From: Leucoraja ocellata
Taxonomy: Eukaryota
Length of the DNA stretch: 64,000 nucleotides
Assembly (NCBI GenBank): GCA_036785375.1
Contig: JAWMAR010000040.1
Span: forward strand, 9,982,001 to 10,046,000
Direction: 5' to 3'
The position numbers and the translations under genes were made by a program. The notes under the pieces were generated by a model that did not search any database, had not been told where the DNA came from, and saw only the letters and a program-made list of their open reading frames with translations. Of this stretch, positions 3,441-25,925 are shown in pieces; position 1 is the first letter of the stretch, and each line of letters opens with the position of its first letter.

Positions 3441-3511
3441 GTGATGCAGACTGACATAATACAGATGGACCTGCCACTCTTGGAGTGTCCAGACTGGAAT
3501 GGACACGAGTT
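3441..3511 (+). CDS. ACCS: ACCS exon VMQTDIIQMDLPLLECPDWNGHE
   Basis: tgcag|...|gtaagt, 71 nt, phase consistent. Aligns to the LLQYxDWxGH motif. Confidence 0.92.
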
Positions 3512-3999
3512 GTAAGTACTGTGTGATTTTAATTAGTAGTTTATTGATATTACATCACTTTAATTTGAATGTGCATCCACGAACATATACTGTCAAAAAT
3601 CTGACTAAATGTTCTGGGTTAATATTTCAACGCATAACATTAGAGATGTTCTGTTGTTTCAGTTTAGAAATTAAAATGAAATCTAGAGCGACCCAAGGAA
3701 CTGCAGACTCTGGTTTACACAAAAAGACACAAAATGCTGGAGTAACTCAGTGGGCCAGGTAGCATCTTTGGAGAACATAGATAGATCACGTTTCAGGTCA
3801 GGACCCTTCCTCAAACTGATTCTGGTGGGGGAGGGAAAGCTCGATGAGAAGTGGGGGAAAGACAAAGCTTGCAGGTGAAGTGAAGGGGGGGGGGGAGGTT
3901 AACTGGCAGATAGTTGGACAAAGACCACAGGTGAAAAGACAAAAAGTGTGAAATCAGGATAGAAGAGTGCAAATTGTGAAGCCAGAGCAAGGAATATGA

Positions 4000-4795
4000 A
4001 GCAGGTAGGATCCTCAGACCTCAGTAATGAGAGATTGAAGAGGTCTGCAAAAAACACCAGCCAGTTGGTCCGCGCATGTTTTGATAAGGAACCAGATACT
4101 TCATCAGTTCCAGACACTTTCTGAGGGTTCACCCTCATGAAGGATCTTCTGACATCAACCTTGGTGACTGAGATTACAATATCAGCGGGGGGCTATGGGA
4201 GCCTTGAGTATTCAATATTCTCCCTATGAAAGTGTGCATAGAATACATTAAGCTTGTCCAGGAGTAATGCCTCATTGTCCCTTGAGCTGCCACTTGGTTT
4301 TGCCTTGTAGCACGTAATGGTGTACAAGCCACAGCTGCTGAATATCTGTCTCATCCTCTAATTTAGAGCAGAAGCCCCTTTTAGCCTTTTTGATGGCCTT
4401 ATTGAGATCATACCTGGACTCGTATGAATCTACATCAACAGACTTGATTGCCCGAGATGTGGTCCTAAGAAGATTGCAGACCTCCCGTTTCATCCAATGC
4501 TTCGGGTTTGGGAAACACTTGGATGGTTTTGGTGGGAACACATCCCTACGTACATTTCCTTATGAAGTCAGTAACAACTGTGGTGTATTTGTTCAGGTCA
4601 GTTGCTGTGTCCATAAATATTGTGCAGTCTACCAACTCAAAGCAATCCCACTGTCGTTCCTTTGCCTTCCCTGACCAGCTTAGGGCAGTCCACACATCTG
4701 GGGCTGCGGCCTTCAGTCGCTGCCGATATGCAAGAAGAGGTACAGGCCAGGGGTCAGATTTTCCAAAGTGTGGGCAAGGAATGTAGCGATGGCAT
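4000..4795 (-). mobile_element. Rex1/Babar-type LINE fragment
   Basis: FPNPKHWM, RYDLNKAIKKAKR and RVNPQKVSGTD...ADLFNLSL peptides. Confidence 0.75.
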
Positions 4796-4805
4796 ATCTG
4801 ATATA

Positions 4806-6534
4806 TCTTGTATACTCTGGAATTTAGAAGGATGAGAGGGTATCTTATTGAAACATATACGATTATTAAGGGATTGGACACGCTAGAGGCAGGAAACATG
4901 TTCCCAGTTGGGGGAGTCCAGAACCAGGGGCCACAGTTTGAGAATAAGGGGTAGGCCATTTAGAACGGAGATGAGGAAAAACCTTTTCACCCAGAGAGTT
5001 GTGAATCTGTGGAATTTACTGCAGTGTGGAAGGCAGTGGAGGCCAATTCTCTGGATTCTTTCAAGAGAGAGATAGATAGAACTCTTAAAGGATGAATGAA
5101 TGATTGAATGGATGAACGAATGAATGAATGAATAGTTTTATTTCAGTCCTACATTAAAAAGAACAAAACTTTACAATCTGTGTGAATATGAACCAACACT
5201 GTGTCCATTTCACACAACGTTCACATAATCAATGACTGAAAAATAGGCTGAAGCCACAAAGCTTATTTTTTCCTATCCTATACAATCCATAAGATAACCC
5301 GGAATATCAGCATTACAAAGGAAAGAAAAAAAATAAAATTTACTCTAAATTGTAATCCTTACTTATTTTACATTTTAATCATTTTACATTATAATCCTTA
5401 ATTATTTTACATTTTAAGGCTTTTTTGAAACTCAACGGAGAGATACAAAATTTCAACTCATCACTAAGCCCGTTCCATAATTTGACTCCCAAAACTGAGA
5501 CACATCTATATTTTACATTGGTTCTCACTTTACATGTTTGAAAAATACACAACCCCCTTAAATTATAATGTCCTTTTCTTATTTAATTTATTTTTGAATA
5601 CTAACAGAAAGGCTTTTATTCCTAACTCGGAAAAGTATTTCTAATGTGTTTACATGCACAATATCCAAAAATGTTAAGACTTTATGAATAATGGATTTGT
5701 AGTTTCACGGTAAGAAGCTTTATGTATTATTCTAATAGCTCTTTTCTGGAGTTTAATTATAGAGTCTATATTTGTTTTATATACATTTCCCCAAACTTCA
5801 ACACAATATGATGTATATGGCATTATAAACGAGCAATACAATATGTACAAACACCTTATTCAACAGATCCTTTGTTTTGTAAAGAATAGCAATGGATTTA
5901 GATAATTTTCATTTGATGTATTCTATATGTGGCTTCCAACAAAGTTTACGATCTATAATCACTCCCAGGAATTTTATTTGGTATACTCTTTCAATTTCAA
6001 CTCCATTTAAATTCAATTTTATTTCACAATTAACCCTGTCACCACCAAACACCATAAATGTTGTTTTATTTTCATTTAGGGATAACCATATAAACCATAA
6101 TACAATTACAGCATGGAAACAGGCCAACTCGGCCCTTCTAGTCCGTGCCGAACACTTATTCTCCCCTAGTCCCATCTACCTGCACTCAGACCATAACCCT
6201 CCATTCCTTTCCCGTCCATATACCTATCCAATTTATTTTTAAATTATTAAATTTCAAACCATTTTTTTAGCACTATCATTTCTCTTTCTACTGTTTTCAA
6301 TAGTTCTTTTATTATCATTCCCTGAACAAAATACATTTTTATCATCCACAAACGTAACAAACTTCAACGTATTAGATAGTTTACAAATATCATTTAAAGA
6401 TACCGGAGTCAAGGGATACGGAGAGAAGGCAAGAACGGGGTACTGAATGTGGATGATCAGCCATGATCACAGTGAATGGCGGTACTAGCTCGAAGTGCCG
6501 AATGGCCTACTCCTGCACCTATTGTCTATTGTCT
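4806..6534 (+). mobile_element. CR1 3' fragment split by a nested insertion (CR1 parts ~4806-5090 and ~6396-6534)
   Basis: The two halves join across TTAAAG to give the same sequence as the intact CR1 end at ~7786-7841. Confidence 0.8.
5091..6395 (-). mobile_element. AT-rich L2-group (Crack/Daphne-like) LINE 3' fragment, itself containing a CR1 tail at ~6085-6240
   Basis: LSLNENKT..M.F...IERV.QIKFLGVIID.KL.WKPHI peptide. AATAAA plus (TTCA)n tail on the minus strand. Confidence 0.75.
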
Positions 6535-6544
6535 AATGATGGTG

Positions 6545-7841
6545 GAGGAAATGGAATTATAGACCAGTTAGCCTGACATCGGTGGTGGGGAAGATGCTGG
6601 AGTCAATTATAAAAGATGAAATAGCGGCACATTTGGATAGCAGTAACAGGATCTGAGTCAGCATGGATTTACGAAGGGGAAATCATGCTTGACTAATCTT
6701 CTGGAATTTTTTGAGGATGTAACTAGGAAAATGGACAAGGGAGAGGCAGTGGATGTAGTATACCTGGACTTTCAGAAAGCATTTGATAAGCATAGGAGAT
6801 TAGTGGGCAAAATTAGGGCACATGGAATTGGGGGTAGAGTGCTGACATGGATAGAAAATTGGTTGGCAGACATGAAACAAAGAGTAGGGATTAACAGGTC
6901 CCTTTCAGAATGGCAAGCAGTGACTAGTGGGGTATCGCAAGGCTCGGTGCTGGGACAGCAGCTATTTACAATATGCATCAATGATTTAGATGAAGGGATT
7001 CAAAGTAACATTAGCAAATTTGCAGATGACACAGAGCTGGGTGGCAGTGTGAACTGTGAGGAGGATCCTATGAGAATGCAGGGTGACTTGGACAGGTTGG
7101 GTGAGTGGGCAGATACATGGCAGATGCAGTTTAATGTGGATAAATTTTGCTTCTTTAGTAGCCAAAACAGGAAGGCAGATTACTATCGAAATGGTGTCAA
7201 GTTGGGAAAAGGGGAAGTTCAACGAGATCTGGGGGTCCTTGTTCATCAGTCAATGAAAGTAAGCATGCAGGTACAGCAGGCAGTGAAGAAAGCAAATGGC
7301 ATGTTGGCCTGTCTAACAAGAGGAATTGAGTATAGGAGCAAAGAGGTCCTTCTGTGGTTGTATAGGGCTCTAGTGAGACCACACTGGAGTATTGTGTGCA
7401 GTTTTGGTCCCCTAATTTGTGGAAGGACATTCATGCTATTGAGGGAGTGCAGTGTAGGTTTACAAGGTTAATTCCCGGGATGGCGGGACTGTCATGTGCT
7501 GAGAGAATGGAGCGGCTGGGCTTGTATACTCTGGAGTTTAGAAGGATGAGAGGCAATCTTATCGAAACATATAAGATTATTAAGGGTTTGGACACGGTAG
7601 AGGCAGGAAACATGTTCCTGATGTTGGGGGAGTCCAGAACCAGGGGCCACAGTTTAAGAATAAGGGGTGAGCCATTTAGAACGGAGATGAGGACACACGT
7701 TTTCTCACAGAGAGTTGTGAGTGTGTGGAATTCTCTGCTTCAGTTTGCCTCGGCCGGTTTTCTGGATACTTTCAAGAGAGAGCTAGATAGGGCTCTTAAA
7801 GATAATGGAGTCAGGGGATATGGGGAGAAGGCAGGAACGGG
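6545..7841 (+). mobile_element. CR1 LINE ORF2 fragment (reverse transcriptase to C-terminus), frameshifted
   Basis: YRPVSLTS, VYLDFQKAFDK, SGVSQGSVLG, FADDT and LEFRRMRG motifs. Confidence 0.95.
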
Positions 7842-8337
7842 ATTAAGAAACATCGGGTGGCACTGTGAGCGGCAGCCTGCAGTTTGTCTGTCATTTCACC
7901 CTTTTTGTTATTTTTAGTGAACCAAAAAGTTTAATCTTGTACACATTGAGTTTCAAAGTTTCATTATTTTTAAGGTTGACTGAAGTAGATAAACTCAACT
8001 GTTAACTTTTTCATTGCTTGACATTTCCTTATCTCTATTAAACCCCGACATTACTCTGGTTCAGAAACTCACCATGTTGCATTTTTCACTCCTTGAAGCC
8101 AGCAACAAAGGATCATGTCACAGTGCTCCAATAATACTAAATAGCCTTACATTTATAAGAAAGAAATATAAGCATTTAAGTAATATTGCTGACACTGTTT
8201 ACTTCTTACTTCTTTTAACCTGATAATTTTGTTAATGTATGTTTTGCTTCAAGCCAGAATTTAAACATGAAGAAATGTGAAAGAAAGAGGTATATTTATC
8301 TATCACCTTTTGTCTTTGCTTTTTTCTGCAACCTCAG

Positions 8338-8407
8338 TCTCAGAGTGGAAGTTGGAAGGTTTTTGACGCATCACTGTAAGGCATCTGTATACATCAAGCC
8401 TGACAAC
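8338..8407 (+). CDS. ACCS: ACCS exon (F)LRVEVGRFLTHHCKASVYIKPDN
   Basis: ctcag|...|gtgagt, 70 nt. Aligns to LREEVAxFL...L.PEN. Confidence 0.92.
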
Positions 8408-9033
8408 GTGAGTAATGGAGTAACCAATATAAAGAAAAAAGGAATATTTGGGCATATTAAATAAATTTTAATAAACTGTGTTACAGAGAATGTGAATGGT
8501 TAATATCACTTCTATCTCTTCATGACATTTTGTGGCAGATCTTTTAATTAGCCTGGTCCAATAGCCTGGTTGAACCTACAAACTAGGAGGAAGAGAATGC
8601 CACTCAGACCCTCGTCTATTCTGCGATTTAATAAAATCATGGCTGATCTGTTCTAACACCAACTCTGCATTCCTGTGTACCTGTGAAAATATTTCAATCT
8701 ACTGCGCCCAGTGTTCCCGATGTGGGCTTTTGTAAATCAGTGAGACCAATTGTAGACTCCGCAACTATTTTGCCAAATGCCACTCTGTCCGCCAATGCCT
8801 ACTAGATCTTCATACCACTTTCACTCCCATTCCCATTCTGATCTTTCTTGCCAGGGCCTCCTCCATTGCCAGAGTGAGGCCAAATGCAAATTGGACGAAC
8901 ACCGCCTTGTATCCCAATTTTGTTTACAGATGGAGTTTGAGTAGGTGTTATTTTTCCTTACAAATGTAATACTTTTACATAAAATACTTTGTAACCAAGA
9001 ATGATGCATTCAATACTTTTGTCATTATTCTAG

Positions 9034-9100
9034 ATAGTGGTGGTTAATGGATGTGGATCTCTCTTTTCCTCATTGTCTGCTGTGCTCTGTGATCCTGGAG
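9034..9100 (+). CDS. ACCS: ACCS exon IVVVNGCGSLFSSLSAVLCDPG
   Basis: ctag|...|gtaggt, 67 nt. Conserved VVxNG..SLF...LCDPG motif. Confidence 0.95.
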
Positions 9101-9696
9101 GTAGGTGAAGGCCGAAACTGTAGTTGTTTATTTGAACAACAAAATAATTGGTTTTGCTTTTCAGTAGGTTAAAGTTGTACTGTGGATGTGATGTTGTTCC
9201 ATGACATTTGACATATCAATATTGTAAAATTACCTTTTAAACTACTGTCAGTGTTTGAAATGGACTTGTAAAAATAAATTAAAAACTCAGTCCCTGATCC
9301 AGAAATAAATATTAAAACTAAAACATATAACAGGATTGAGAGTAACTGTGCTTGCTACAAACAGTATTCAAATGAGTTAGTAACAAAGGGCCACTGAAAC
9401 CCTTGGTTTCTCCACCTCCCCTTTCTCAACCGGTAAACATGCCCATGATTGTTACAGGCTAATCATTGCAGATTCAGGACATTACTGCTAGTATTCCTTG
9501 TTGCCCCAGGATAGCATCTATAATCCAGTTATAAATAGCTGCTTTATCAATGATCCAGGTGGGAAAGTTGAACTATAGTATAGAGATTAAAGCTGCATGT
9601 CTAGGAGGCAGGCCAGACAAGACTTGGGGCAGAAGAGGGAACATGGATGGTCTGAACAGCTAGTTTGCTTCAAAGCAAGAGGCCTTGCAGGTAAGA

Positions 9697-10195
9697 CATA
9701 GAAACATAGAAAATAAGTGCAGGAGTAGGCCGTTCAGCTCTTCGACCCAGCACCGCCATTCAATATGACCATGGCTGATAATCCAAAATCAGCACCCTGT
9801 TCCTGCCTTTTCCCCATACCCCTTGGTTCCGTTAGCCCTAAGAGCTAAATCTAACTCTCTCTTGAAATTATACAGTGAATTGGCCTCCACTGCCTTCTGT
9901 GGCAGAGAATTCCACAGATTCATCACTGTCTGAGTGAAAACGTTTTTCCTCATCGCAGTCCTAAATGGCCTACCCCATATTCTCAAACTGTGATCTCTGG
10001 TTCTGGACTCCCCGAACATTGGGAACATTTTTTCAGCATCTAGCCCGTCCAATCCCTGAAGAATTTTATATGTTTCTGTAAAATATCCTCTCATCCTTCT
10101 AAATTCCAGTGAATACAAGCCCAGTCGACCCATTATTGCATCATATGTCAGTCCTGCCATAACCTGGTGAACCTATGCTGCACTCCCTCGATAGC
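9697..10195 (-). mobile_element. CR1 3' fragment
   Basis: ORF 9789-10160 (LGLYSLEFRRMRG...NLWNSLP) plus CR1 tail. Confidence 0.9.
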
Positions 10196-11063
10196 AAAAG
10201 ACATTGGATGAACTTGGAGCATGAATCGGCACATGGGATTATGATATTATAGCTATCACAGAAATGTGGTTGAGCGATGGACAGGACTGGCAGCTCAATA
10301 TTGCAGGAAACTGATGCTTGCAGCGTGAGAGAGATGGAGGTAATTTAGGAGGGATTCCAGCATTGATCAAAGAGAGGATGTGCCGGGAAACATCCAGCAA
10401 GGCCATTTGGGTAGACCTTAAAAATACAGAAAGAGTGATCACGTTGATGGAATTATACTGTAACCCTGCCCCCTCCCTCTAATAATCAGCAGGAATTAGA
10501 GGAAATATATACAGGGAGTTTGCAGAAGCTGTAGGAACAACAGTTTTGTGATAGTAGATGAGTTTACCTTATTATTGGTTGGAAGCACTTTGGGTTCGAT
10601 GACCATAATTCTGTGTGTTTCAAGATGGTCATGGAAAATGGTTGGACTGGTTCACAAATTAATGGCCTAAATTGTGGGAAGGCTTATTGAAAACAAAACT
10701 TTTCACTGAACCTCATAGCATTTGACAATAATAAACCATTTATCTGCCTGAACTCTTGTCTATAACATTCTATTGTTGAAAGTGCAATTCTGACAGACAT
10801 GATTGATTAGTATCACAAATTGCACTGTGCAATGAGCACGCATATAGTACATCACATTTCTGGGGAAATTTTGATCTTGTTGAACAATGTTATCATTGAC
10901 ACTAATTTATATCCCATATTTGCACCTAAATCAGGATGCTTAGTAGTAAAATAGAATTTTGAATAAAACCACAAATTTGTCTTGTTTTTAAAAAATGTTT
11001 TCATAAACCGGTTTCACTATTCAGCCATAGAACATTGGTTACTTGCAACAAGTGTGCTGATGT

Positions 11064-11128
11064 TTCATTCATACATTCATTCAATCATGCATTCATGCAT
11101 TCATTCATTCATGCATTCATTCATTCAT
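11064..11128. repeat. (TTCA/TGCA)n microsatellite
   Basis: Imperfect tetranucleotide tandem repeat. Confidence 0.8.
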
Positions 11129-11228
11129 AAAATTGTTTTGTTCAATAGTAAAGGACTATTTAAATTCTAAGTTGCTGGCTATTTACTAAAATGACTTTAA
11201 TGTAACTGTTTTCCTTCTGTGCTGACAG

Positions 11229-11326
11229 ATAGAATTCTTCTACCCACACCATACTATGGTGTTATCAAGGATGATATTTTTCTCTACAGCAAAGTCAAAC
11301 CATTGCATGTGCATTTGGAGAGCAAA
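11229..11326 (+). CDS. ACCS: ACCS exon (D)RILLPTPYYGVIKDDIFLYSKVKPLHVHLESK
   Basis: acag|...|gtaaga, 98 nt. PTPYYG motif. Confidence 0.95.
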
Positions 11327-11884
11327 GTAAGAGTAAAAACAACTGAACATTTGACGTTGTGGTTCCTTGTATTTAGTAGCTGCTTATTGTCAAACCTGTC
11401 CAGATCTTAAGCTTCTGTTTGGGTGAATGCAAAGTATTCAAGCAAGGTAGATCCGTACTGTAATTAAAGAACCAACATTGTGTTTAGAACTAGTATTTGA
11501 GAGAGTATTTTTGTTCAAGATGTGTGTTGAACATATCATTTCAATGTAATTCGCTAAAACACCCTTGAATTGAATCAGAATGCATACATCAGCCTCTTAT
11601 ATGCATAACATGATTCCTTTTCATTTATGGGTCCTGCCACACCCGTCATAATGGGGAAAGTGTCTTTTTAAATTCTCCTCATATCCCAATGTTCACAGTT
11701 CTCCAACTATGCAAACTGCACATACATATAGTTTTGCCAAAGGAGAGTTGGATGAGCCATTAGTATTGGCTTCAGTTTGCATGTAATGTTAATTATATAG
11801 TTGAGAAAGGTGGAAATTGATATCATAGAGAATTATAAGTGTAAACCCAAGTATTGCTGTGTATTTGCCTTGGCCTTGTTTTAG

Positions 11885-11962
11885 GTGACTGATGGTGACA
11901 CACGTCCATTTCAACTTACAGTGGGAAAGCTGAAAAAATCAATGGAAGCTGCAAAGCTCCAG
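11885..11962 (+). CDS. ACCS: ACCS exon VTDGDTRPFQLTVGKLKKSMEAAKLQ
   Basis: ttag|...|gtgaat, 78 nt. TRPFQLTV motif. Confidence 0.94.
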
Positions 11963-12266
11963 GTGAATGATTCAGAAATGTTCATCGTTTTGATCGTAGA
12001 TAGTAATTTTTCAGTTTCGGTTTCAGTTTAGATTATTGTCATTTGTACCGAGGTACAGTGAAAGGCTTTTGTTGCGATAAATTACAACAATGAAAGAGGA
12101 AAATATGTTTAGAAAAACAAACTAATTGAACTGAACCTTTTCTTTCTCAGCTCCAGGTCAGAATCCCCATTGAGCTGAATGGGAATTTTAGTGCTAAGTC
12201 AGGTTATTACATTAAGGGTTAGACAATAGCAATCTCATAGTTTATTTAAAATATATTCCACAATTT

Positions 12267-12563
12267 GGGCAGCACTGTGGCGCAGCAGTAGAGTTGCTGA
12301 CTTCCAGCGCCAGGGGCCCGGGTTCAATCCTAACTACAGGTGCTTGTCTACAGAGTTTGTACGTTCTCCTCGTGATCTGCGTGGGTTTTCTCCAAAATCT
12401 TTGGTTTCCTCCCATACTCCATAGATGTACAGGTTTGTATGTAAATCGGCTTGGTATAAATGTAAATTGTCCCTAATGTGTGTAGGATAGTGTTAATGTG
12501 CGGGAATCGCTGGTCGGTGCCGACCCGATGAGTTGAAGAGCCTGTTTCCGAGCTGTATCTCTA
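12267..12563 (+). mobile_element. tRNA-derived V-SINE (HE1-like)
   Basis: A box TGGCGCAGCAG, B box GGTTCAATCC, V-domain (gagtttgtacgttctcc...gtgggttttctcc) and CR1-like tail. Confidence 0.8.
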
Positions 12564-12805
12564 AACTATAAATTAAATTTAGGGTTAGGTGAAAGCAAGG
12601 TGGAAACACTTGTAAATTAGAATGAGAAATTGAAGTAACTGACACAAAAATAATTACATGTTTAATGATGCACTTTGTTTTTGGGTATTATAATTACCAT
12701 TCATGACTCCAAAAATGACTCTTAAAATCTTCACTCTAATTATACTAATCTTTCATTGTAAGGTAGTTTTGCAATAACCCTAACAATTTTTCTGTGTATT
12801 CACAG

Positions 12806-12906
12806 GGTAAGAAGGTCACAGCCATGATTCTAACAAACCCTCACAATCCCCTGGGTGATATTTATTCAGCAACAGAAATGAAAGAATTTCTTGAGTTTGC
12901 TAAAAG
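12806..12906 (+). CDS. ACCS: ACCS exon GKKVTAMILTNPHNPLGDIYSATEMKEFLEFAK
   Basis: cacag|...|gtgaga, 101 nt. NPxNPLG aminotransferase class I motif. Confidence 0.96.
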
Positions 12907-13949
12907 GTGAGACTTTCGCAGTTCCAGAATGAAAAATTGTATGTTTTTACTTTGTTACATTTCCATGAAAACTTTAAAACTATATGTTCAATAAAACAAT
13001 CAAATGCTCCTGCTGATGTCCGCTTAGGTGTTCCGATCATCCAATTTAGAAATTAAATGACCTTAAATATCTTTCATATATATCCTTATGTACATCTCAT
13101 TTCCGTCCTTGTAATTCCACTTGAGACTTAAAGTGGCCTTCAGTCTGAATCTTTATCACAGCTAACATATTTCCTTGGGAGGATGGAATATCATTCATTG
13201 TTTGTTTGTGTAGATGTACTTTATTTTGGCATTAAAAATATAATTTCGTATTTCTACGCATCCTGTTGAGAAATCACTCTCTTGTTTCTGTGTGTATAGA
13301 TTATTAAGGCTTGCTGATACAATTGAGGTTATATACTTGTATGTTTGAAGGCAAAATGGATGATTCTGAAGTTTGATTCCAAAGCATGGTTCAAGTTCTT
13401 TTATTCTATTTTGTGCTACTATATTTTGGATCAATTTAACTAGCAGAAAAATGTCATCAATGACAAGAATACCCAACTGGTTCATTTTAACCTATACAGT
13501 AGCATGGATCAGTAGGATATACTTTGTGCATACACTTTCCATCAGATTTTTTAAAAGTAGACTATCCCAACATTTAAGAAACAGTTAGACAGGTACATGG
13601 ATAGGACAGGTTTGTAGGGATAAGGACCAAATGCTGGCAGGTCCATAGCTGGGACATGTTGGCCGGTGTGGGCAAGTTGAGCCGAAGGGCTTGTTTCCAC
13701 ACTGTATCACTCTATGACGCTATGAATCTATGACTAGTGTCATAGGATCCAAAAAAGACTGCTGATTCTAATATTTTAGTTGAGGCTACTTTTTCTTGCC
13801 AAAGATCATGTTGGTTCTACCATATCGCTATGCTATTAATATGCAAAACGACTGGTTACCTTGTGGGGGAAAAAATCAGAACCTTTGAATTGATTGAGAT
13901 TTATGAATAAGTTATTTAGATTCTGTTTTTTGTCCCTCTGGTGATGTAG

Positions 13950-14419: not shown

Positions 14420-17400
14420 TGTAAGAAATTACGGCTTCAGCATGTAGATCGAAACAAACACAGGTTTTCAGTACACACTGTTGCCAGTGTAGGTATTCCT
14501 TATTTTTAAAAGTGCACTGTGCATACTCACACATATTCACGAGACTGATAAGATATAGACTATATCACACAAAATAAATCTTACCATGAAAGTACTCAGT
14601 TCTTAAAGTTACAGTTATAATTATATACACTACACTGCTCTCCCCTTAGAAAGTAAAATAACTTGTAAATTAGACAAACTAATAAAGAATAATTTTATAA
14701 TGTTAATCTGACGACTGGTTTACGTACTCTTTCTGATCTCCTGAGTGCTTTAGGGGGTGTGTCATGTTGTGGTTCTAAAGGAAAGTCAAGTTCAGCATCA
14801 TTTACCCTTATCTCTACTTTCTTTGGAGATTCTGATTTTATATCTGAACTTGGAATAATACCACAAATCTACTTCTTCGACTGTGCTTTGCTCTTGCTGG
14901 GATCGTATGGTTTATGTGTACACTTCTAACATGTCCTCCAATTTCTACCAACTACCTCCTGGTACCATACACTTCAACTACTATTCCCACATCCCATTTT
15001 TTGCATTGTAAGGGGGGGCTGAGAACATGAACCTAATCATGGGTATCAAACCTACATCCTTTTGGACTTCCACCATAATGACGTTTCAGATCAGATTGTT
15101 TTTGTTCAACCTTAGGAGATAAGTTAGGTAGAGCCAAACTCTGTCTATTTCTGAGCCTTCTTTTCATTAGTTCAGCTGGCGATAGATTGTGGCATGGTAC
15201 GATATTTCAGTAAGAAACTAGCTAGCCGCTGTGACATACTGAATTTTGAATTCCCTTCAAGAACTTGTTTCTTGAGAGCTCCTTTGACTATCCTGACTGA
15301 CCTTTCAGCTGCGCCGTTAGATGCCGGACGGTAAGTTGGCACTAAGGTATGCTTGATACCATTTAGCTACATGAAAGTTTGGAACGGTGCAGCACGAAAT
15401 TGGGGGCCGTTGTCAGAGACAAGCTCTTCAGGTAATCCATGACAAGCAAAGATAGACCGCAATGTGTATATTGTTATTTCTGTTGTTGTGTTTGTACCCA
15501 TATGTACCACCTCAATCCACTTTGAGTGACTATCTACCAAAACAAGAAAATTATTATTCCCGGGTTCACAAAAATCCACATGAATCCTCTGAAGAGGTCA
15601 AGTAGGCCAAGACCATGTTTGCAAAGGGGTTTGGGAAGGCCTACCTGTACAACTCTGACAAGTGTTACATTTGCTTGCCATTGCTTCTCTGTCAATGTCC
15701 AATCCTGGCCAATACATGCAACCTCTGGCTGTAGACCTCATTTCCACAGTACCTGTGTGTTCACGATGGAGTTCTTTAAGCAATCTTTGTCTTAACCAAT
15801 TACTACTCTGTGACCCCCATTTAAAACACCCTTGCTTACATGACAGTTCATGTTGTTTATTGTGATAAGGTTTTAGGTGATTAGTACTTGGTTTTATTTC
15901 TGACCATCCACACAAAGTTTGTTCGTATACTGGCTTTAGCACTGTGTCCTTTTGAGTTTCAGCAGCAATTTCAGCTGCTGTGACTGTAAAGGTAGAAATT
16001 GGAGGATGTGTTAGAAGTGTGCACATAAACCATATGATCCCAGCTAGGGATGAACCGGTATAAGAGCAAATCATAGACAAAGAAGTAGATGTAAGACTTT
16101 GCTATTATTCCAAAGTCTGACAGATCGACTTCTTCGTCTATGCTTTGCTCTTGTACCGGTTCATCCTTTGCTGGGATCATATGATTTATGTGCACACTTC
16201 TAACACGTCCTCCAATACTTCTCCAGATTACGTTTTCAGTTGAACGCTTGTTTCTGTGATAGGCATATTGCTAAACTTGGATTCATAAGGTGTCTTTGCT
16301 TATAATTGTGCAATCAGTAGCGGTATCAATACACATAGTATTGATGTATGGATTGTTCACTTTGACCCTTGTCTGAAAGTCTTCATCTCCAGACCGACCG
16401 TTCATAGTATAAATGACGTACAGTCCAAGTTCATTACTCTCTGGGTGTTCTTCAAGGTTATGAATCCCATGCATGTGGTTTTCTCCAGCCTTTTGTTTAG
16501 CTTTATCATGTGATGGCACTACATGCTGCTGCAATATGGTCTTTCTTTTGATAGTTGTGGCACTTTGATAGTGAACTGGCACTTATTTGCTTCATGTTGA
16601 CCATTGCATCAATAGCACATAGCTGCGCATTTCCCAGAACTTTCCTGTGAAGGCCTTTTCCCAGTCTTGTCATGCTTGTGTTTTGGAACTACCTTTTGAC
16701 TGTTGACTGTGCCAGTATGTGTTGGTCAAAACTCATGTGCACTTTGACATGCCATCTCCATGGCCAAAGCAGTTTTAGAAACATAGACATAGAAACATAG
16801 AAATTAGGTGCAGGAGTAGGCCATTCGGCCCTTCGAGCTTGCACCGCCATTCAATATGATCATGGCTGATCATCCAACTCAGTATCCCGTACCTGCCTTC
16901 TCTCCATACCCTCTGATCCCCTTAGCCACAAGGGCCACATCTAACTCCCTCTTAAATATAGCCAATGAACTGGCCTCGACTACCCTCTGCGGCAGAGAGT
17001 TCCAGAGACTCACCACTCTGCATGCCAAATCAAAGGTAAGGGTTGGTGTGTCATTAATTTTGATTGGATTCGCTCATCCAGCATTCCACTTACAAATCTA
17101 TCATGCAAAGCTCGATCCAGAAATGTCGCAAAATTGCAGTGTAGAGACTACTTCTTCAGTGAGATAATGTTCTCACACACAGTCTCACCAGACTTCTGAT
17201 TTCTTGTGTGAAATTTGTAACTTTCTGCGATCTCTTGGGGTTGAAGTGAGCATCAGGTTTTGCAAGAACAGTCTCAAATGAAACATTCCTTGCTTTCTCT
17301 GGGGCTAGGATGTTAATGAGAGCTTCATAATATTTTGTTCTTGGATGGCCTTGTTTTGTGCTCTTACCTGCACTTGATCATCATCCTCTGTTTCTTCAGC

Positions 17401-17976
17401 TTCAATAATGTAATTTGCAAAAAAACCTTTCCATTCGCTCACAGTACGAGGTAAAGGTTTCACAGTTCTTGTCGAAAGTCCCTAGTCGGCCTATGTGTCC
17501 CGAGGATGCCATCTTGCCCCCTGGGCACAAGACAAAGATAGCCTGACAAACTCTAGACGATTTGTACAGCTGCTGTTTTAAACTACAGTCCCTTGCATAG
17601 AAGGATCTGTGGCCCCTCGTGTCCAGTTCACAAACAACTGCGACACAGCTTCATATTTGCTGTTTAAAACGTTAAACAATGCTGCATATTGCAAAACAAT
17701 CCTGCATTGTATTCGGAGGTTGAGTTCACGAACTCTATCTGATCCTCGTCGCCATCGTAAGATACTGAATTACGGTTTCAGCAGGTAGATAGAAACAAGC
17801 ACAGGTTTTCAGTACACACTGTTGCCAGTGTAGGTCTTCCTTATTTTGCAAAAGTGCACTGTGCATACTCACACATATTCACGAGACTGATAAGATATAG
17901 AATATTTCACATGACACAAATAATACCATTATAGTACTCAGTTCTTAAAGTTATAGTTACCTTTATATACATTACA
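14420..17976 (-). mobile_element. Ty3/Gypsy (Mag-like) LTR retrotransposon, internally deleted and degenerate, in an ACCS intron
   Basis: LTRs 14420-14634 and 17756-17976. 5-bp TSD ATCTA at 14415-14419 and 17977-17981. PBS TGGCGACGAGGATC (17754-17741, tRNA-Ser type). PPT at 14635-14647. Remnants of gag (~17510 leftwards), protease (IDTATD), and integrase with HHCC and VDSHSKW...VSDNGPQF. Confidence 0.93.
16777..17020 (-). mobile_element. CR1 LINE 3' end nested in the Gypsy gag
   Basis: CR1 3' UTR with (ATAGAAAC)-type tail. It splits the gag peptide LTFDLAC / KTALAMEMA. Confidence 0.85.
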
Positions 17977-18079
17977 ATCTAAGAAGAGTAGAATGTGCCA
18001 GGGACATAGGTGTGGTAATCATTACACTCAGTAAAGAACCATCTGATTTTGTAATTGTCTCCCTGTCAGCTGCCAGAGG

Positions 18080-18345
18080 GTAATGCCCCTGTCCCACTTA
18101 GGAAACCTGAACGGAAACCTCTGGAGACTTTGCTCCCCATGCGGTTCCCGGAGGTTTTTGTCAGTCTCCCTAATGGTCGAAAGTGGTTTCCGCTTCTTCT
18201 ATGTTCCAGCGATTATTTCAAAAAATTCAATACTTGCTGCGACTAAAAATAGGTTGCCGTTTTAAAAATCAGTAGTTTTTTAGTCGAAGCCGGTTGCAAT
18301 GCTAGTTGAAGATGGTTGCCGGAGGTTGCAGGTAGTGCAAGGTAA
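18080..18345. mobile_element. Probable non-autonomous DNA transposon fragment
   Basis: Starts GCCCCTGTCCCACTT with internal GGAAACC/GGTTGCC subrepeats and CpG-rich content. Family assignment uncertain. Confidence 0.4.
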
Positions 18346-18533
18346 GCACTAAAATGCATAGTCAACCTACAAGTTCAAGTAATAGCAGCCTTTGTTTTTT
18401 TCACCTGATAATTCAAAACACATTTATGTTATCTCTTGCATAATTTTACCTTGTCCACATTAGTATACATTGTGTGAGCTTTTTAAAATATTTATATGTA
18501 CAATATTGATGGCTGTCTGGTATTGTTTTTCAG

Positions 18534-18579
18534 GCTCCCTGATCCACAGAGAACTCATATTATGTGGGGAATTAGAAAG
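18534..18579 (+). CDS. ACCS: ACCS exon (K)LPDPQRTHIMWGIRK, ending in the PLP Schiff-base lysine
   Basis: ttcag|...|gtaaat, 46 nt. LPDPQRTH motif. Confidence 0.95.
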
Positions 18580-21379
18580 GTAAATGCATCCACCGTGGCA
18601 TCTGCGTCAACGCGAGAGATAATGTGATGTTAAAGTTCAGAGGTCATAGGAGCAGAATTAAGCCATTCATCCCATTGAGTCTACCCCACCATTCATTCAT
18701 CTGATGTGCATTTCCCTCTCAATCACATTCTCCTGCCTTCTCTCTGTAACCTTTAACACCCTTACTAATCAAAAATATGTCAATCTCTGCTTTAAAAATG
18801 CCCAAAGCCTTGGCTTCCACAGCCATCTGAGGCAATGATTTACCACCCTCTAAATAAAGAAATTTCTAATAAAAAAAATCCTCTTCATCTAATGGTACGT
18901 CCTTCTATTCTGATGCTGTGCCTTCTGGTCCTAGACTCTCCCACTAGTAGAAACATATTCTCACATCCACTCTCTGCATGCCTTTCATTAAAACAGCAAT
19001 GTAGAATGTGTTAAAGTAGCAAAATGAAACAGTGAATTGGCACTTTTACATGTTGTGCCGGAAAATGGTAACATGCTGGTTTGCATCTCCCATGATGAGC
19101 CTTGTCACTACTGAATTAATCTGGGGATATATTAAGAAGAGCCATTCGATTGAACTGCTGTGGCGCCGCCCAGAGCTAATACCTTACTATATTTTGTAGG
19201 AGGTGCAGGGGACTTGATGGATTCCTAAATATCTTAATCCAGAAGGAGGCATTTAGCCTTGTGGTTATATCAGTTTAAAAACAAACTTTTGATGTTATTC
19301 CTAGTTTTCATTTTTTTGGTTCCTTTTATAAATCCACTCATGATTTCTGTCTTCATAATTCTTTCAGACACACAATTCCAAGTCCTTACCACTCTTTGGG
19401 TAAATATTTTTTCCTCAGCTCTCCTCTAATCCACCCACAACCTATGCTTCCTTGTAATTAGTCTCTCAGCTAAGGGAACAGGTCCTTCCTTTTCGCACGA
19501 GCTAAGCCTCTCATGAGTTTATATCTAAAGCTACAGGAGAATCATTTTAACAAAAATAGAAACTCTGTTCAATTTATCTCTGTACTTATTTAGTTTATTC
19601 CAGGAAGGAAGGAATTTGTGAAAAATCCTCTAATCAAGAAGTGATTAGTACTGAAATAGAAGGTTGAGCTGTAGGAAAATATTGTAAAGCATGAACACTT
19701 ATCTTGAAGTTAGCTGAATGACTCAGTCGATGCTATAATTCACTGATGTTACCTTCCTTTGATGGTCATAAGCCCTGATCAATGAATGTTTAAAATAAAG
19801 AATAGCTAAAACTTTCTTAATAGTAGCATTCTTTCTATCAAATGTGATTAAAGCAGAATTTGTTAACTCCCTTCTGTGGGAATCAGTTAAATACTTGCAA
19901 AGAGATAGATACTGGAAAACACAAAGGAAACAGATGTTAAATCATTTCCAAAAAGAAGTGAGCCAAATTGGCTTATTAGGCTGTTTTATTGTTGTGATCC
20001 TTTTATGAAGTTCTGCAGTAAAGGCTACATAATCTTGATGATTATCATGCATTTCCGAGTAGCAGTGAAAATATTGTGAGAACTGGAGGACAGGGTCCCT
20101 GCTGACTAAAGTGCTGCAAGGTAATCCAAGGCCAACATTGAATCTTTAAAGGATTGATAACAAGGCCAGCATTTGAAGCTCAGCCTTGAGTTCTTGAGTG
20201 GAGATAGTGATTATTGTGCTATGTGAAGCAAGCTGGTGAAATTTCTGAATGTTAAACGCCACAGAATGTTGATGGTGGGGAAACTGGCAATGGTAATTCC
20301 ATTGAATGTCAGGAGTATGTGACCAGACTTTTTGTTTAACGTGGTAATTATTTGCTACTGCTGTGGCGTGAATGTGTCCTGCTGCTTATCCATGCCTGGA
20401 TGTTGTCTAGGTCTTGCTGATGCAAGCATGGACTTCTTCATGTGGTGAGGAATTGTGGATGCAATTGGACATTATGAAATCATTAGTGAATGTCCCCACT
20501 TCCAACCTGTAGAAGGAAGGTGATTGATGAAGCAGCTGAAGATAGTTGGGCCTTAGACACTGCCTCAAGGAACTCCTACAGTATCCATGGGCCTTGGGAT
20601 GAGATGATTGACTTCCAACAACCACAGTCATCTTTGATGCAAGGTTTGCTCAGCAGTTATCAATGGCTTAGTATGTCGTCATCAAAAATTTGCTTGGCCT
20701 TCACATCAAAACTTGCAGGGTATTCTACAGTGCGGATAAATCTAAAGTGGTTTAACTTCAGATATCCTTTGATTCTGTTGAAGAAAGCAACAAAAAAGAA
20801 GCCTGTAGTAAGACATTGAATCAGTAAAAAGTTCAAATTTTGCATAACACAAAACCATGATCAGTGTCGGTTTCATAGATTAATGAAGTAAAATGTTGGT
20901 GATTTCACCATTATCACCAATTATGCAAAATCTGGACCATTCAGTCATAAGAATCTGCCTGAGCTTCAGATCACTGATATTTTATGTATCTAAAATAGCA
21001 TATACTGATCATCAGAGGCGGAATAACCCTTAAATTTACCTTTGTGTAACTATTGTCTTTGTAATCTGAAATTGGAGATAAACTTGTTCCAAGCCACCAG
21101 CAACACATTACAATGAATGTATACTGCGGATTATGTTGCATGAGCAAAATCTATTTCATCAGATCAAGAGTATTTAATTGTCTTATGTACTGGCAAGGAA
21201 CTGGACTGGCAAACTGGCAAGGAACAAGTACTGGCAACTTTACAGGTGCCTTAATGCAACAACACATAGATATACAAGAATCAATTATACAATAAATTTC
21301 ATTATTATTAATACAAAGTAACAAACCACAATAGAGCAAAACCAAAGTACATAATACAAACAAAATAAAGTCCATAATG

Positions 21380-21690
21380 CATCATAGTTACTGAGAAAGG
21401 ATTGCGTTTAGGGTGCTGCGGCGTTCAAGAGCTAGATTATTGCTAGGAAAAAGTTGTTCTTGAACCTGAAGGTCACGGTTTTTAGACTCCTGTACATTCC
21501 TCCAGATGGAAGTAGTGAGATGAGAGTGTGACCAGGGTTGTGTTGGTCTTTCGTGATATGAGCTATCTTTTTGAGACAGTGCTCTTGAGATCCCTTCGAT
21601 GGTGGAGAGGTCAGTGCCCATGATGAACTGGGAATGTCCACCACTTTCTGCAGCTTCCTTCGTTCCTGGGCATTCGAAATATCAAACCGG
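21380..21690 (-). mobile_element. Rex1-type LINE 3' fragment
   Basis: KIAHITKDQHNPGHTLISLLPSGGMYRSLK..RFKNNFF peptide. Confidence 0.75.
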
Positions 21691-21844
21691 TGATGTCTCG
21701 GATTTGTATCTGATTTCCAGGGACCGTGTTGCTTGGCCTTGCTTGCTTGACAATTTGGGATAAAATTGCATGCCAAAAACAAATTGAGAAGCAGTGAGCA
21801 ATATCAGGAGATAATTAAATGAATCGTGTTTTTTTGTTGTCTAG

Positions 21845-21986
21845 GATTTTACAGCCAGTGGACTTCACGTAGGTACTCTACACACTGAGAATGCTGATGT
21901 TATTAGTGCCCTTGGTCAACTGTCACACTTCCATGGTGTTCCAGCTGCCACACAACATATGGTAGCACAGTTACTGAGAGACCAAG
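21845..21986 (+). CDS. ACCS: ACCS exon DFTASGLHVGTLHTENADV...AQLLRDQ
   Basis: ctag|...|gtaaga, 142 nt. Aligns to DFGxSGLRxGTLYTEN...AQLLRD. Confidence 0.94.
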
Positions 21987-22089
21987 GTAAGAATGCCTTG
22001 TGGAGAAAGCCCCATGTTCCAGCAGTACATAGAAAGTATATGTTCATTAATCAATGAATTGGTAGTGCTTCACATGAAATACATTGCTT

Positions 22090-22750
22090 TGCCTGGATTG
22101 GAAAGCTAGGCTGATTGCAATAGAGGTGACCATTTCACCAAACACATGCTCAGTCTGGCAAGGTTTGCTGGATCTCCCAGTTGTTTACCATTTTAACTCC
22201 CCTTCCCAGTCATATACCATCTTTTCTGTTCTGGGCCTCCCCAATTCCAGAGCGAGGTCACTTGCAAACCAGAGGAACAGCACCTCGTATTCCATGAAAA
22301 GCTTACAACCCAACGGAATGGATATTGCATTATCCAAATTTTTAGTAACACCACATTTTCCCCATCTCACTTTCCTGGGCCTGCCCCACACCTGGTGTGT
22401 ACCCATTTCTCCCATTATCCTACCCCTCTTTCCCCCCTTACCCCTGTCCCTTTCAACCTTTATCCCTTTCTCTGGATTTACATTTCACTCCTCTCATTAA
22501 CCAGTACCCTTTTATCTCAACCCCTTGTCACTAATTCCACTCATCTGCCGATCAAAACCCCCCTCACCTGTATCCACGTATCAATTGCCAGATTTTGCCC
22601 CACCCTCCAACTCTTTTCCCCCTACTACAATCGGTCTGAAGGTCTCGATCCGGAGTTACTTATCCATCCCTTCCACAGATGCTGCATGGCCTGCTGAGTT
22701 CCTCCAGTACTTTGTCTTTGTTCATGATTTCAGCATTTGCAGTTCCTAGT
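22090..22750 (+). mobile_element. Degenerate Penelope-like element 3' part (GIY-YIG C-terminus plus pLTR)
   Basis: LPVVYHFNSPSQS...LQPNGMDI..S.F peptide followed by the same pLTR sequence as the element at 34067. Confidence 0.75.
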
Positions 22751-24125
22751 GTCTACGTATGACAAAGAGCTTTTTAAAAAGTTACTCGTATAGGCAATGG
22801 GTGTTACATCATCTTTTACATTAAACCATGGTGTAACTAGGATGTCAACAAGTAGTTATCAAAGATTGCCAATCCAATACAAAAAATCCCAATCTTTGAA
22901 CTTCTGTCTCACCTGGTTCTGTTTCACACATTCCCTATTAACTCAGCATTGGCAAGTTGGGCCAAAGGGCCTCTTTCCTCGCTATACGACTCTATAACTC
23001 ACCGAAAACCATACTACCTTTAAATTCACCAGGCCCTGCTCCTGTACTCCTTCAAACTCATGTGGATCAATGGAGAATTTATTATGCTATTATGTGACAC
23101 AAAAAAAAAGCAAATCAAAAGTGTGTTGGGTATTAATAGGAATAACATCTGATGGTCTGGAAAATCTGCCAGCCCGCATCCATCAAATTCAAGGTGGCAG
23201 ATTATCAGTTTTATTGTGTTACCTTTTGTTTTAACTGATTTAAGGGTATTCTCCTCACACTTTCCTGAAGGTACACTTTTACAGACCAGGTTTGGAGGCT
23301 GAACCAAATATGTTAAATAAAAATCTGACTCAGCAAGTTAGATTTTGAAGGGTTTTATAGTTAAGCTAAATTCTTCTCTTTTCCAAACACAACCATGCAC
23401 GTCCATTTTTTTTCAACATATGACTGAATACTGAACTGCCTTAAGAATAACAGCCTTTAGTTTTCCTTTTCTAGATTAGTTTTGCTTAAACCAGTTGAAA
23501 CACCTTCTGAGTATCATCATGCCACTGAGACCAGCACCCTTGTAGAGTCAAAACTCCATTCATTGGCTATGTATCAATCAAAAGGAGAGTGGGGAGGGAT
23601 GAGATATAAAAAATGAATAAGGTATCATATCTTTCTTTAGTAACGTATTAGTCAATACAAAATAGGCTATATTTAATAATCAAAATGTAACAGTATATTT
23701 TCTTAAACTTAAAATTAGTGGGTCCTGTTTACATTTTTATATTCTCTGTAAGAGACTGAGACTAAATTATGATCTGTTATGTTTACCTACAGTATTTTGA
23801 TTTATATTTATAGATTGGAAATTAGTCCTGTAAAAAGTCCTGCAAAAAGGATATCTAATTATACGATTTTTACATGCTAAATGTTATATAAAAAGACGTC
23901 CTTCTATTGTCCAAGTGGTCCAGCGCAGAGCAGAAAGCCAGCGAGTTGAACTTACATAAAATTAATACTGAATTCCAGCATTCCAGTTATAAAAGTAATG
24001 TGATAAAATAGTACTGTTTTAATTGTTGGATGTAAAAATGCTTCTCTATAAATTGGATAACAGATTTTCTTTTACAAGATTAGGACATGCCGTCTGTGTA
24101 AATTTATTTTTCTATTTCTCTGTAG

Positions 24126-24268
24126 ATTGGTTCAATCGTGTTTTTTTACCAACAAATCGAGCCAGATTAAAAACTGCCCACAAGTGTATGACAAATGAAT
24201 TAATAGCAATGGACATTCCTTTCTTGAACCCGCAGGCAGGCCATCACATCTGGGCTGATTTTAGAAAG
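24126..24268 (+). CDS. ACCS: ACCS exon (D)WFNRVFLPTNRARLKTAH...HIWADFRK
   Basis: gtag|...|gtattc, 143 nt. Phase consistent. Confidence 0.95.
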
Positions 24269-25114
24269 GTATTCACCTTTAGTAGATGGATATAAAGGAA
24301 TCTTTAATTTCTGTACCAGAAATTTATTTAGGATTCTTTTCAGTTGTTTCAATATATTCCTTCTATAATGTAATAAAATTGTTAAAAAACAATGTTTTTT
24401 CATATTTTGAATCTTCTGATTTCAGACCAAGGGACTTTGTAGGATCTCATTCATGTGGGAGGGACTCAAGATGGAAGGTGATGGTATGGTTATACAGCCA
24501 TAGAAATCTATCATCATAATGCATTGAGAAGCAAGAGTGAAGGGCATATTTTAGAATATCTAGTCGAGTTTATTGTCATATGCACAAGTACGGTGAGGTA
24601 CAGGTGTAATGAAAAATCTTGCTTGCAACCACATCATGGGTACATCAATTCAAACAACATACAAGGAAGAACATTGCATAGAAAATAAAAATAGAAAATA
24701 AAAACCAAGTCATTGGTACTGCCATAGTGTTCTGTTGTCGAAGTAGGATTAGGGTTGTGTTAGTTCATGGGGTGCAATGTATTCTATTTGTGCATCTGGA
24801 CTGTGCTGTGTAACATAGTGTTTGGTAAAAGTAAGTCTTTCAACATATCGAACTTTCCTTACTATCACTACCATGAAGTTTCAAGAACATAAGATTAATT
24901 TAGGTCATTTTTGCTTTATATGCTATATGTATGAACAATACAGAGGATTTAAGCTCTCAGGGTAATTATACATGATTTAGGCATCCTGCCAATTGTTGAG
25001 AGCAGAGATGACAAATGCAGAGATGACAATTTGAACAGCAAATGAATTGAAGTAGAGATAAAAAATTGTGGAGAGATCATGCAGAGGAAAACTACACACA
25101 GCAACAGTATAGGG

Positions 25115-25308
25115 CAGGGGTTCCCAACCTTTTTTGTCCCGTTTACCCCAGGCAACTTTAATAGCACAGAACAATGTTATTTAACATATTTATGAACAAG
25201 TAATGATGAACAGATACCGGTATACCAGAACCAAACACAGTCAGTCAATGAGAAAAAAATATGTACAAATCCAGAATCAACAAATTTACCCCAGGTTGGG
25301 AAACTTTG
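25115..25308. mobile_element. hAT (Charlie-like) MITE
   Basis: TIRs CAGGGGTTCCCAACC / GGTTGGGAAACTTTG. 8-bp TSD GTATAGGG / GTATAAGG. Confidence 0.8.
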
Positions 25309-25771
25309 GTATAAGGGATTTTGTATGGGGCTGTTTTACTGCTTAGCAAAGACAGACACCTGAAATGCTGGAGATGCTGAAAGGAAATAGTGAGAAAAGG
25401 AGAACAAACTTGAGGCAACAGGAGTGTTGGCCTGAGGATGAGATGGTGATTCAGAACAAAGTACAGTATGCTGACAGGACCGTAAATCTCAAGGCTGGAG
25501 GGTAAAGGATGGGTTTTAGAGAAAGGATTAATAATAATTATGGTGATTGGGTATTTTGTAAGTCTTACTAATTTATTATTCTTAAACAATTGGATCCTCT
25601 TATGTCTTATTGAATTGAAGTCTTTCATTGCAGAATCATATTTTCCAGTTTGTGTCCAGGCATATCTCCAGTTTGAGACCTAGTCTGTTGGCAACGGTTA
25701 GATAAGAACTTGTGTTCCGTGATTCAGCAATGAAAACCACAAATGTAATGTGTGCGCATCTTTCTATCCAG

Positions 25772-25925
25772 TATTTAAGGAATCCGACATTTGAAGAAGA
25801 AACAAAACTATGGAAGCGATTTCTTAAAAATAAAATCCTTCTCAGCAGTGGGAAATCATTTGGGTGCTGTGAACCTGGATGGTTCAGCATTGTGTTTGCT
25901 GACAAAACCAGTAGACTACAACTAG
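25772..25925 (+). CDS. ACCS: ACCS exon YLRNPTFEEETKLWKRFLKNKILLSSGKSFGCCEPGWFSIVFADKTSRLQL
   Basis: ccag|...|gtgagt, 154 nt. TFEEE..LW and C.EPGWF motifs. Confidence 0.95.

Follow-up and report, generated by a model that had tools for sequence, protein, structure and literature searches.

The stretch of DNA analysed here (referred to below as the window) comprises 64,000 nucleotides from the skate Leucoraja ocellata (NCBI GenBank assembly GCA_036785375.1, contig JAWMAR010000040.1, positions 9,982,001 to 10,046,000 of the forward strand), and it carries all but the first coding exon of the gene for 1-aminocyclopropane-1-carboxylate synthase-like protein 1 (ACCS). An earlier note on this DNA had described the gene as an ACCS homologue with an intact reading frame, in which four residues binding the cofactor or the substrate are replaced. 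Based on the results presented below, the enzyme domain of ACCS is probably a pyridoxal phosphate (PLP) pseudoenzyme domain throughout the batoids (viz. skates, rays and their relatives). The protein bearing it is likely to bind DNA, and the domain itself has likely been retained as a module that folds and forms a dimer.

The 14 exons of ACCS within the window join into a frame of 682 codons with zero internal stops, all 14 acceptors being AG and all 13 donors GT. The 14 open exons with canonical splice sites of the earlier note are thus confirmed; however, the gene holds 15 coding exons, the first of which lies upstream of the window. A 902-amino-acid Logan protein (P0001) served as the guide for joining the exons and for numbering the residues, and the joined window protein differs from it at 3 positions, the corresponding differences being 4 residues for Leucoraja erinacea, 6 for Amblyraja radiata, 19 for Rhinoraja longicauda and 74 for ACCS of Pristis pectinata. 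In the skate's own genome, the small exons of ACCS were overlooked by a Pfam search and recovered by a protein query. Because the full-length 902-amino-acid proteins sit on Logan contigs of 3.4-3.7 kb, whereas the gene spans ~31 kb, the ACCS transcript is spliced. Further, one spliced contig continues unbroken past the ACCS stop codon to 28037, and both GT-AG introns among exons 13-15 are skipped in the contigs of 2 of 4 runs, these two being RNA by guess, with joints that skip GT-AG introns; among the runs listed with ACCS sequence, zero are recorded as RNA. In one raw RNA run, of which 6% was read, one of three exons was covered at a depth of ~2 with no exon joint, and in the reads over window positions 3000-22500 repeats dominate and no exon joints were seen.

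Arg266 of aspartate aminotransferase (AAT) binds the phosphate of PLP, and Arg386 binds the alpha-carboxylate of the substrate. In skate ACCS, the positions of the phosphate ligands Arg266, Ser257 and Tyr70* are occupied by H671, R662 and C472, respectively, and that of Arg386 by S797, and residues required for catalysis are therefore missing. The Schiff-base lysine (K663), the pyridine aspartate (D626) and the counterparts of Asn194 (N598) and Tyr225 (Y629) are retained in skates, as are the DEVY, NPHNP and PYY motifs; both the four altered codons and the retained motifs are as had been read earlier. In alignments to the ACC synthases (ACS) of tomato and apple, K663 falls on the lysine of the SK motif, H671 on the arginine of GFRVG and S797 on the arginine of GWFR, and the positions of R671 and R797 align with Arg281 and Arg407 of ACS. 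The active-site residues of apple ACS include Lys273, Arg281 and Arg407 (PMC10813531, PMC1282579), the two arginines form salt bridges to the carboxylate and the phosphate in AtACS7 (PMC8580319), and the first shell of AAT consists of 16 residues, Tyr70, Ser257, Arg266 and Arg386 among them (PMC3823064; also PMC9430417). The catalytic placement proposed previously is thus borne out for K663, H671 and S797. The Tyr70 label of C472 agrees with the tyrosine of prokaryotic aminotransferases, in weak alignments (E 0.11-1.4), and with the family, 105 of whose 124 rows have Tyr at position 472, but it does not agree with plant ACS, whose active-site Tyr85 aligns with W475, three residues past C472.

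Nor are the four changes due to chance. In the 173 non-batoid rows of the alignment (which include isoforms, a mis-binned skate fragment, P0121, being excluded), position 472 is Y in 168 rows and a gap in 5, and position 662 is S, T or G in 171 and a gap in 2. At position 671, 168 rows have R, two have K and three have a gap, and position 797 is R in 159, a gap in 13 and S in a single model that skips the region. The ACCS proteins of elephant and hamster likewise retain Y/S/R/R. That the four changes are an artefact of sequencing, assembly or alignment is scarcely credible, as nothing was found in favor of it and given that the same four codons are present in a second assembly copy of the locus (G000:C806), that all four changes are also found in proteins named Leucoraja, Amblyraja and Rhinoraja and in all five full-length Logan proteins of the cluster, and that the changed positions lie inside gap-free motif blocks. 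Assembly error was rejected as an explanation because independent species and transcripts carry the same changes. The G000:C806 copy shares 96.5-99.4% identity across long blocks and appears to be the other haplotype, since there are further genes that occur in pairs.

The distribution of these changes was determined in 12 sharks and in nine batoid species, which belong to four orders and comprise three skates, one sawfish, one electric ray and two species each of stingray and devil ray. R671H and R797S are present in all nine batoids and in none of the sharks. S662R is confined to skates, and Y472C is shared by skates and Mobula while being absent from the stingrays to which Mobula is related, due to which it can be concluded that Y472C arose twice. 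On this sequence distribution, the four changes, which had earlier been taken as one event in a stand-alone enzyme, represent two batoid-wide losses and two later ones (Y472C and S662R in skates). They occurred in a protein that is fused to a Myb/SANT domain, and the genome holds an intact paralogue at another locus. Other residues of the pocket have changed in the remaining lineages: Y629F is present in the six non-skate batoids, Y535Q in four myliobatiforms, G660E in Pristis and C510H in Narcine. Thirteen residues of the domain, including E/D419K, G420D, P467L, R671H and R797S, are fixed in batoids, whose crown is roughly 180-200 million years old, and are absent from sharks and Callorhinchus. 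For the pocket as a whole, the published first shell of AAT (PMC3823064) was employed, of whose 16 positions all except Ile17 and Arg292 were mappable, which leaves 14. Eight of these 14 positions are changed in at least one of the nine batoids, compared with 60 of the 236 remaining conserved sites (Fisher p=0.025), and 1 of the 14 is changed in the 12 sharks (8 versus 1, p=0.013); each batoid carries 4-5 first-shell changes, in five different combinations. An earlier pocket list, chosen after seeing the data (p=0.008 and 0.002), was dropped in favor of the published one. As a separate observation, the carpet sharks (P0008, P0146, P0147 and P0160) show changes at sites that are otherwise invariant, viz. 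G442A in three of them and W772L and E431Q more widely.

Despite these losses, the enzyme domain is under continuing purifying selection, and the gene remains open and spliced. The domain measures 421 residues in all nine batoids, with no indel and no truncation. Its sequences in the two assembly copies differ by 1 non-synonymous and 3 synonymous bases, as compared with 12.2 and 3.2, respectively, expected from the rate in introns (315/25725; Poisson p=7e-5), and in exons 13-14 of another run (10 differences in all), the five differences that are listed are all synonymous. In relative-rate tests, which are not independent of one another, the enzyme domain was faster in batoids than in sharks in 15 of 16 cases, compared with 4 of 16 for the linkers and 0 of 16 for the Myb domain, coiled coil and C-terminus taken together. 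The earlier suggestion that cofactor and substrate binding was lost or rewired, in preference to pseudogene decay, is upheld as regards loss by the open frame, the splicing, the purifying selection and the first-shell changes; its other half, a rewired sensor, is weaker, as different lineages have lost different pocket residues.

Skate ACCS (902 amino acids) consists of a Myb/SANT domain, a coiled coil and an aminotransferase domain, as seen from the Pfam matches to PF13837 at residues 12-99 (E 2e-20; the first Atlas match, 0.91, is of the same family) and to PF00155 at residues 438-804 (178.9 bits, versus 213.9 for shark), together with a 68-residue helix in the predicted structure at residues 259-326; a match to the GntR family was absent from the Pfam results for skate ACCS. 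Over its first 105 residues, the protein matches that of Callorhinchus at 103 positions and that of Sarcophilus at 93, and the C-terminal helices past the enzyme domain are also conserved. The PF13837+PF00155 pair is recorded in sharks, chimaera, coelacanth, lungfish, gar, teleosts, amphibians, reptiles, birds, monotremes and one marsupial, and the Myb/SANT-aminotransferase fusion is thus seen, at the level of domain assignment, across the jawed vertebrates. The Myb profile gave no match in proteins of lamprey (2 rows), amphioxus (3), echinoderm (2), hemichordate (3) and coral (1), where truncated annotation could mask the domain, above all in lamprey, nor in the placental ACCS rows tested (P0192, P0191, P0187, P0180 and P0391), where it could be masked in the same way. 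Taken at face value, placental ACCS without a Myb domain would mirror the loss in batoids. In some marsupial models the Myb domain is missing as well, but their start falls inside the coiled coil. A Myb-only isoform was considered and rejected, as the only skate candidate (P0004, a 405-amino-acid Logan protein) ends in an adapter-like tail, which we take to be read-through into a library adapter. At L003 and L004 (G000:C2396 and C36), an exon was also noted that shares 32% identity with the part of exon 2 encoding the coiled coil, and it possibly belongs to an MSANTD-type gene.

The single-chain AlphaFold model of skate ACCS is poor (mean predicted local distance difference test score, pLDDT, of 56) and was used for the fold and the positions of helices alone; its best fold match is to ACS (E 9e-28). 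When two Leucoraja enzyme domains were modelled together, the dimer score was 0.84, compared with 0.44 for the best control, with a pLDDT of 89 and at least 97% of the contacts agreeing between runs. By its PF00155 match, its ACS-like fold and the pLDDT of the dimer model, the domain is a fold-type I PLP enzyme domain in sequence family and fold. In microbes, 21 of the 30 solved pairs and none of the 23 single chains pass the mark set for the dimer score, and in animals 7 of 16 pairs do so; passing it indicates likeness rather than binding and, since ACS dimers have been solved, may come from structures already known to the model. Residues 469-474, 662 and 667-672 are located at the predicted dimer interface.

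A protein query of the skate's own genome identified a second member of the family on the minus strand at G000:C186:2954645-about 2929800 (L017-L020). This paralogue has 14 exons of matching sizes, with a GC donor after the third exon, and encodes 483 amino acids without a Myb domain, showing 194/414 identities to P0001. Its active site is intact (Y/Y/N/D/Y/S/K/R/R), and it differs at 7 positions from an annotated Amblyraja protein, whose cluster holds Leucoraja, Rhinoraja and Logan members. In the enzyme-domain tree, which nests the skate ACCS gene in chondrichthyan ACCS with support of 100/99, the paralogue has a short lungfish ACCS as its partner (94/91, not starred), and both fall outside the clade formed by lamprey and jawed-vertebrate ACCS (100/100). 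The paralogue is therefore ancient and was not the trigger of the loss, although it could buffer it. A recent duplication as the cause of the losses was likewise rejected, as the G000:C806 copy looks like the other haplotype and the sole true paralogue found is ancient. The first intron of the paralogue contains a Pro-rich tandem repeat.

Table 1. Coding exons of ACCS, key codons and other features in and near the window.
Feature	Position	Strand	Remarks
Coding exon 1 (aa 1-220)	G000:C40:9978901-9979561		~2.4-3.1 kb upstream of window base 1; Myb/SANT PF13837 (aa 12-99) and His-rich linker
ACCS coding exons 2-15 (aa 221-902)	613..27658	+	
Exon 2	613..1259	+	Basic RRKRK patch, long helix/predicted coiled coil (aa 259-326), linker, start of aminotransferase domain
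Exon 3	3025..3084	+	GIINLGTSENK; G442 (Gly38-equivalent) retained
Exon 4	3441..3511	+	Loop predicted across dimer interface
C472 codon TGT	3486..3488	+	AAT Tyr70* position; Tyr in sharks and bony vertebrates
Exon 5	8338..8407	+	
Exon 6	9034..9100	+	NGCGS phosphate loop, unaltered here
Exon 7	11229..11326	+	PYY; ring-stacking Y535 retained in skates, Gln in four myliobatiforms
Exon 8	11885..11962	+	
Exon 9	12806..12906	+	NPHNP; N598 retained
Exon 10	13950..14039	+	DEVY; D626 retained; Y629 in skates, Phe in six other batoids
Exon 11	18534..18579	+	Ends with R662 (AGA 18574, skates only, Ser257 position) and K663 (AAG 18577, Schiff-base Lys)
Exon 12	21845..21986	+	H671 (CAC 21866), Arg266/ACS Arg281 position; His in 9/9 batoids
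Exon 13	24126..24268	+	Exon 13-14 joint present in contigs of two runs
Exon 14	25772..25925	+	S797 (AGC 25886), Arg386/ACS Arg407 position; Ser in 9/9 batoids; exon 14-15 joint in contigs of two runs
Exon 15, coding part	27378..27658	+	End of aminotransferase domain, linker, conserved C-terminal helices, stop
LIM-domain exons (PF00412)	51561-51839 and 49402-49680	-	Tail-to-tail with ACCS
CpG-rich kilobases	41001-42000 and 43001-44000		
98-codon open frame	40947-41240	-	
Broken repeat fragments	6647-7917, 9789-10172, 34270-34983, 60299-60802		In introns and flanks

Of the other features of the window (Table 1), the two LIM-domain exons presumably belong to LMO2, whereas the CpG-rich kilobases are possibly the promoter or first exon of another gene. 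The 98-codon open frame gave no Pfam match. The repeat fragments we take, with their class judged from translations, to be LINE-like reverse transcriptase and other repeats. The start motifs of EXT2 and ALKBH3 were not found in the window.

The sequence of events that would account for the above results is as follows. In the ancestral fusion protein, PLP would most likely have been held in an active site shared between the two subunits of a dimer. The two arginines would then have been lost on the batoid stem (R671H and R797S), in the ancestor of all rays. Going by fold-type I chemistry, a domain without the phosphate arginine and the alpha-carboxylate arginine would not hold PLP tightly or orient a substrate, and turnover would be lost, the remaining pocket residues being thereafter free to drift. 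The fold would have been retained for its structural contribution to a protein in which the Myb/SANT domain and the coiled coil have hardly changed; in terms of predicted functions, the dead domain would supply dimerisation or a protein surface, the Myb/SANT domain would bind DNA, and the paralogue would putatively cover any metabolic need. For batoid ACCS we thus infer a loss of PLP binding, a dimer function and DNA binding. Several points weigh against the pseudoenzyme reading. Catalysis by the ancestral fusion itself is putative, and DNA binding by the Myb/SANT domain rests on the domain assignment. The predicted interface is as variable as the rest of the domain (20/70 versus 92/337 variable positions, p=0.88), and because it is no better conserved, dimerisation is not shown to be a target of selection. 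On the batoid stem, the change in the linkers (0.088) and in the enzyme domain (0.093) is about equal, and within the batoid crown the domain evolves at the linker rate (domain/linker ratio of 1.08, versus 0.77 in sharks). Variation within the batoids alone affects 6 of 14 pocket positions and 49 of 236 other sites, which is not significant (p=0.088). The search for relatives of the paralogue yielded one candidate cluster, of skates only, which is uninformative on sharks. Lastly, K663, D626 and N598 are unaltered in all nine batoids, and in MocR regulators the PLP core consists of the matching Asp and Lys, which these proteins retain (PMC6677901).

The invariance of K663, D626 and N598 speaks for batoid ACCS being a rewired ligand binder, in which PLP would still form an aldimine via these residues and the domain would recognise a ligand that has no alpha-carboxylate, with R662 in skates possibly replacing the lost phosphate arginine. 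The 13 residues fixed in batoids and the location of R662, which adjoins the lysine at a phosphate-shell position, are consistent with such a binder, as is the variation in MocR regulators of the effector-binding residues around a retained Asp/Lys core. However, the six non-skate batoids lack both R662 and Y629, and four of them also lack Y535; in skates, R662 was gained alongside the loss of Y472; and the further losses differ by lineage, which is unexpected for a newly specialised pocket. In addition, the K663 codon is the last of exon 11 (AAG|GTAAAT, window 18577-18585) and adjoins a weak donor without +5G, the layout being the same in the paralogue. Splice donors that lack +5G depend on the AG at the end of the exon. 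Because the K663 codon forms part of the splice donor, retention of the lysine is weak evidence for PLP chemistry, and the argument for such chemistry that had been drawn from it is weakened, as K663 may be held by splicing. It should be noted that the retention of D626 and N598 has no such excuse. Overall, a rewired binder appears unlikely.

The rate of the domain in the batoid crown and the ordinary conservation of its interface could, on the other hand, indicate a passenger in slow decay, i.e. a domain with no positive role that survives through its fusion to a Myb/coiled-coil protein which is itself required, as misfolding or a frameshift would damage the entire protein or lead to decay of the mRNA. 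The two halves are separable in one direction at least, as placental ACCS proteins without a Myb domain indicate. This possibility is nevertheless distinctly improbable in view of the strong present-day shortage of non-synonymous differences, including the five synonymous ones listed in the other run, the lack of a truncation or indel in any of the nine species, the conservation of the C-terminal helices beyond the domain, and the fact that the sole Myb-only skate protein is not a real isoform. Thus, a pseudoenzyme domain retained for its fold remains the reading that we favor. ACCS is conserved among vertebrates, and selection on batoid ACCS despite the lost arginines indicates a role without PLP chemistry, at whose nature the near-invariant Myb/SANT domain hints; the shark and ray proteins offer a pair for direct comparison at the bench.

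Among known proteins, the closest counterpart is vertebrate ACCS itself, of which the skate gene is a one-to-one orthologue and whose name the orthologues bear; however, Tyr/Ser/Arg/Arg are kept in sharks, chimaera, bony fish and tetrapods and not in batoids. Human ACCS reportedly binds PLP and deaminates vinylglycine but makes no ACC, in work attributed to Koch and coworkers in 2001. Databases already label some ACCS entries as "inactive" as ACC synthases, and ACCSL as "probable inactive". In two reports, ACCS is described only as a homologue of the class-I aminotransferase family (PMC4458882) and is termed PLP-containing (PMC11428511), respectively. Mammalian ACCSL (ACS-like protein 2) resembles the batoid case in that the residue at the Arg266 position is lacking in Cavia and Thomomys ACCSL, the latter also lacking the Arg386-position residue and the lysine, and rodent ACCSL has lost the same phosphate arginine independently of batoids. 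The ACCSL-like rows P0212, P0213, P0225, P0234 and P0362 (three of them named ACCSL) lack the Arg266-position residue, and two lack that at the Arg386 position as well. However, ACCSL arose by a duplication specific to mammals, shows long branches and lacks a Myb domain, whereas the batoid gene is a slowly evolving, orthologous fusion gene. The plant ACC synthases (PDB 1IAX, 1B8G, 1M7Y and 7DLW) are the best solved relatives (sequence E 3e-58, fold E value as above), but the identity is ~30% and the two arginines are gone in skate ACCS. Further, Gln98 of AtACS7, which is needed for ACS activity (PMC8580319), corresponds to P473 in skate and Tyr85 to W475, both residues being absent also in sharks.

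The Myb/SANT trihelix domain of ACCS is also found in MSANTD1-4 and NAIF1, which are domesticated from Harbinger Myb-like proteins; these are, however, single-domain genes, and the main text of the paper describing them mentions neither ACCS nor a fusion. The Myb-ACCS fusion is also unmentioned in the main text of a preprint on transposase capture, and a literature search, with subscription papers outside its scope, found no discussion of the fusion or of the batoid ACCS losses. The domain pair is already present in database annotation, and the batoid losses are apparently undescribed. In its layout, skate ACCS, where a predicted DNA-binding domain precedes one of fold type I, resembles the bacterial MocR/GabR regulators, in which an N-terminal DNA-binding domain and a linker precede a fold-type I PLP domain. 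The DNA-binding domain of MocR/GabR is a winged helix-turn-helix of the GntR type, in contrast to the Myb/SANT trihelix of ACCS, the two are of separate origin, and MocR proteins keep PLP binding. By analogy, ACCS thus parallels MocR/GabR in architecture, but is not a member of this group, and sensing by ACCS is putative. It is a tentative and rather doubtful possibility that jawed vertebrates independently built a MocR/GabR-like transcription factor sensing vitamin B6 or amino acids, by joining a domesticated Harbinger Myb-like protein to a PLP enzyme, and that rays then switched off the sensor but retained DNA binding, whereas placentals dropped the DNA-binding half and retained the enzyme. 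If this is correct, then the ACCS proteins of sharks, rays and placentals would provide, in nature, the complete form, a form with a dead sensor and one reduced to the enzyme, by means of which the function of this orphan gene could be found.

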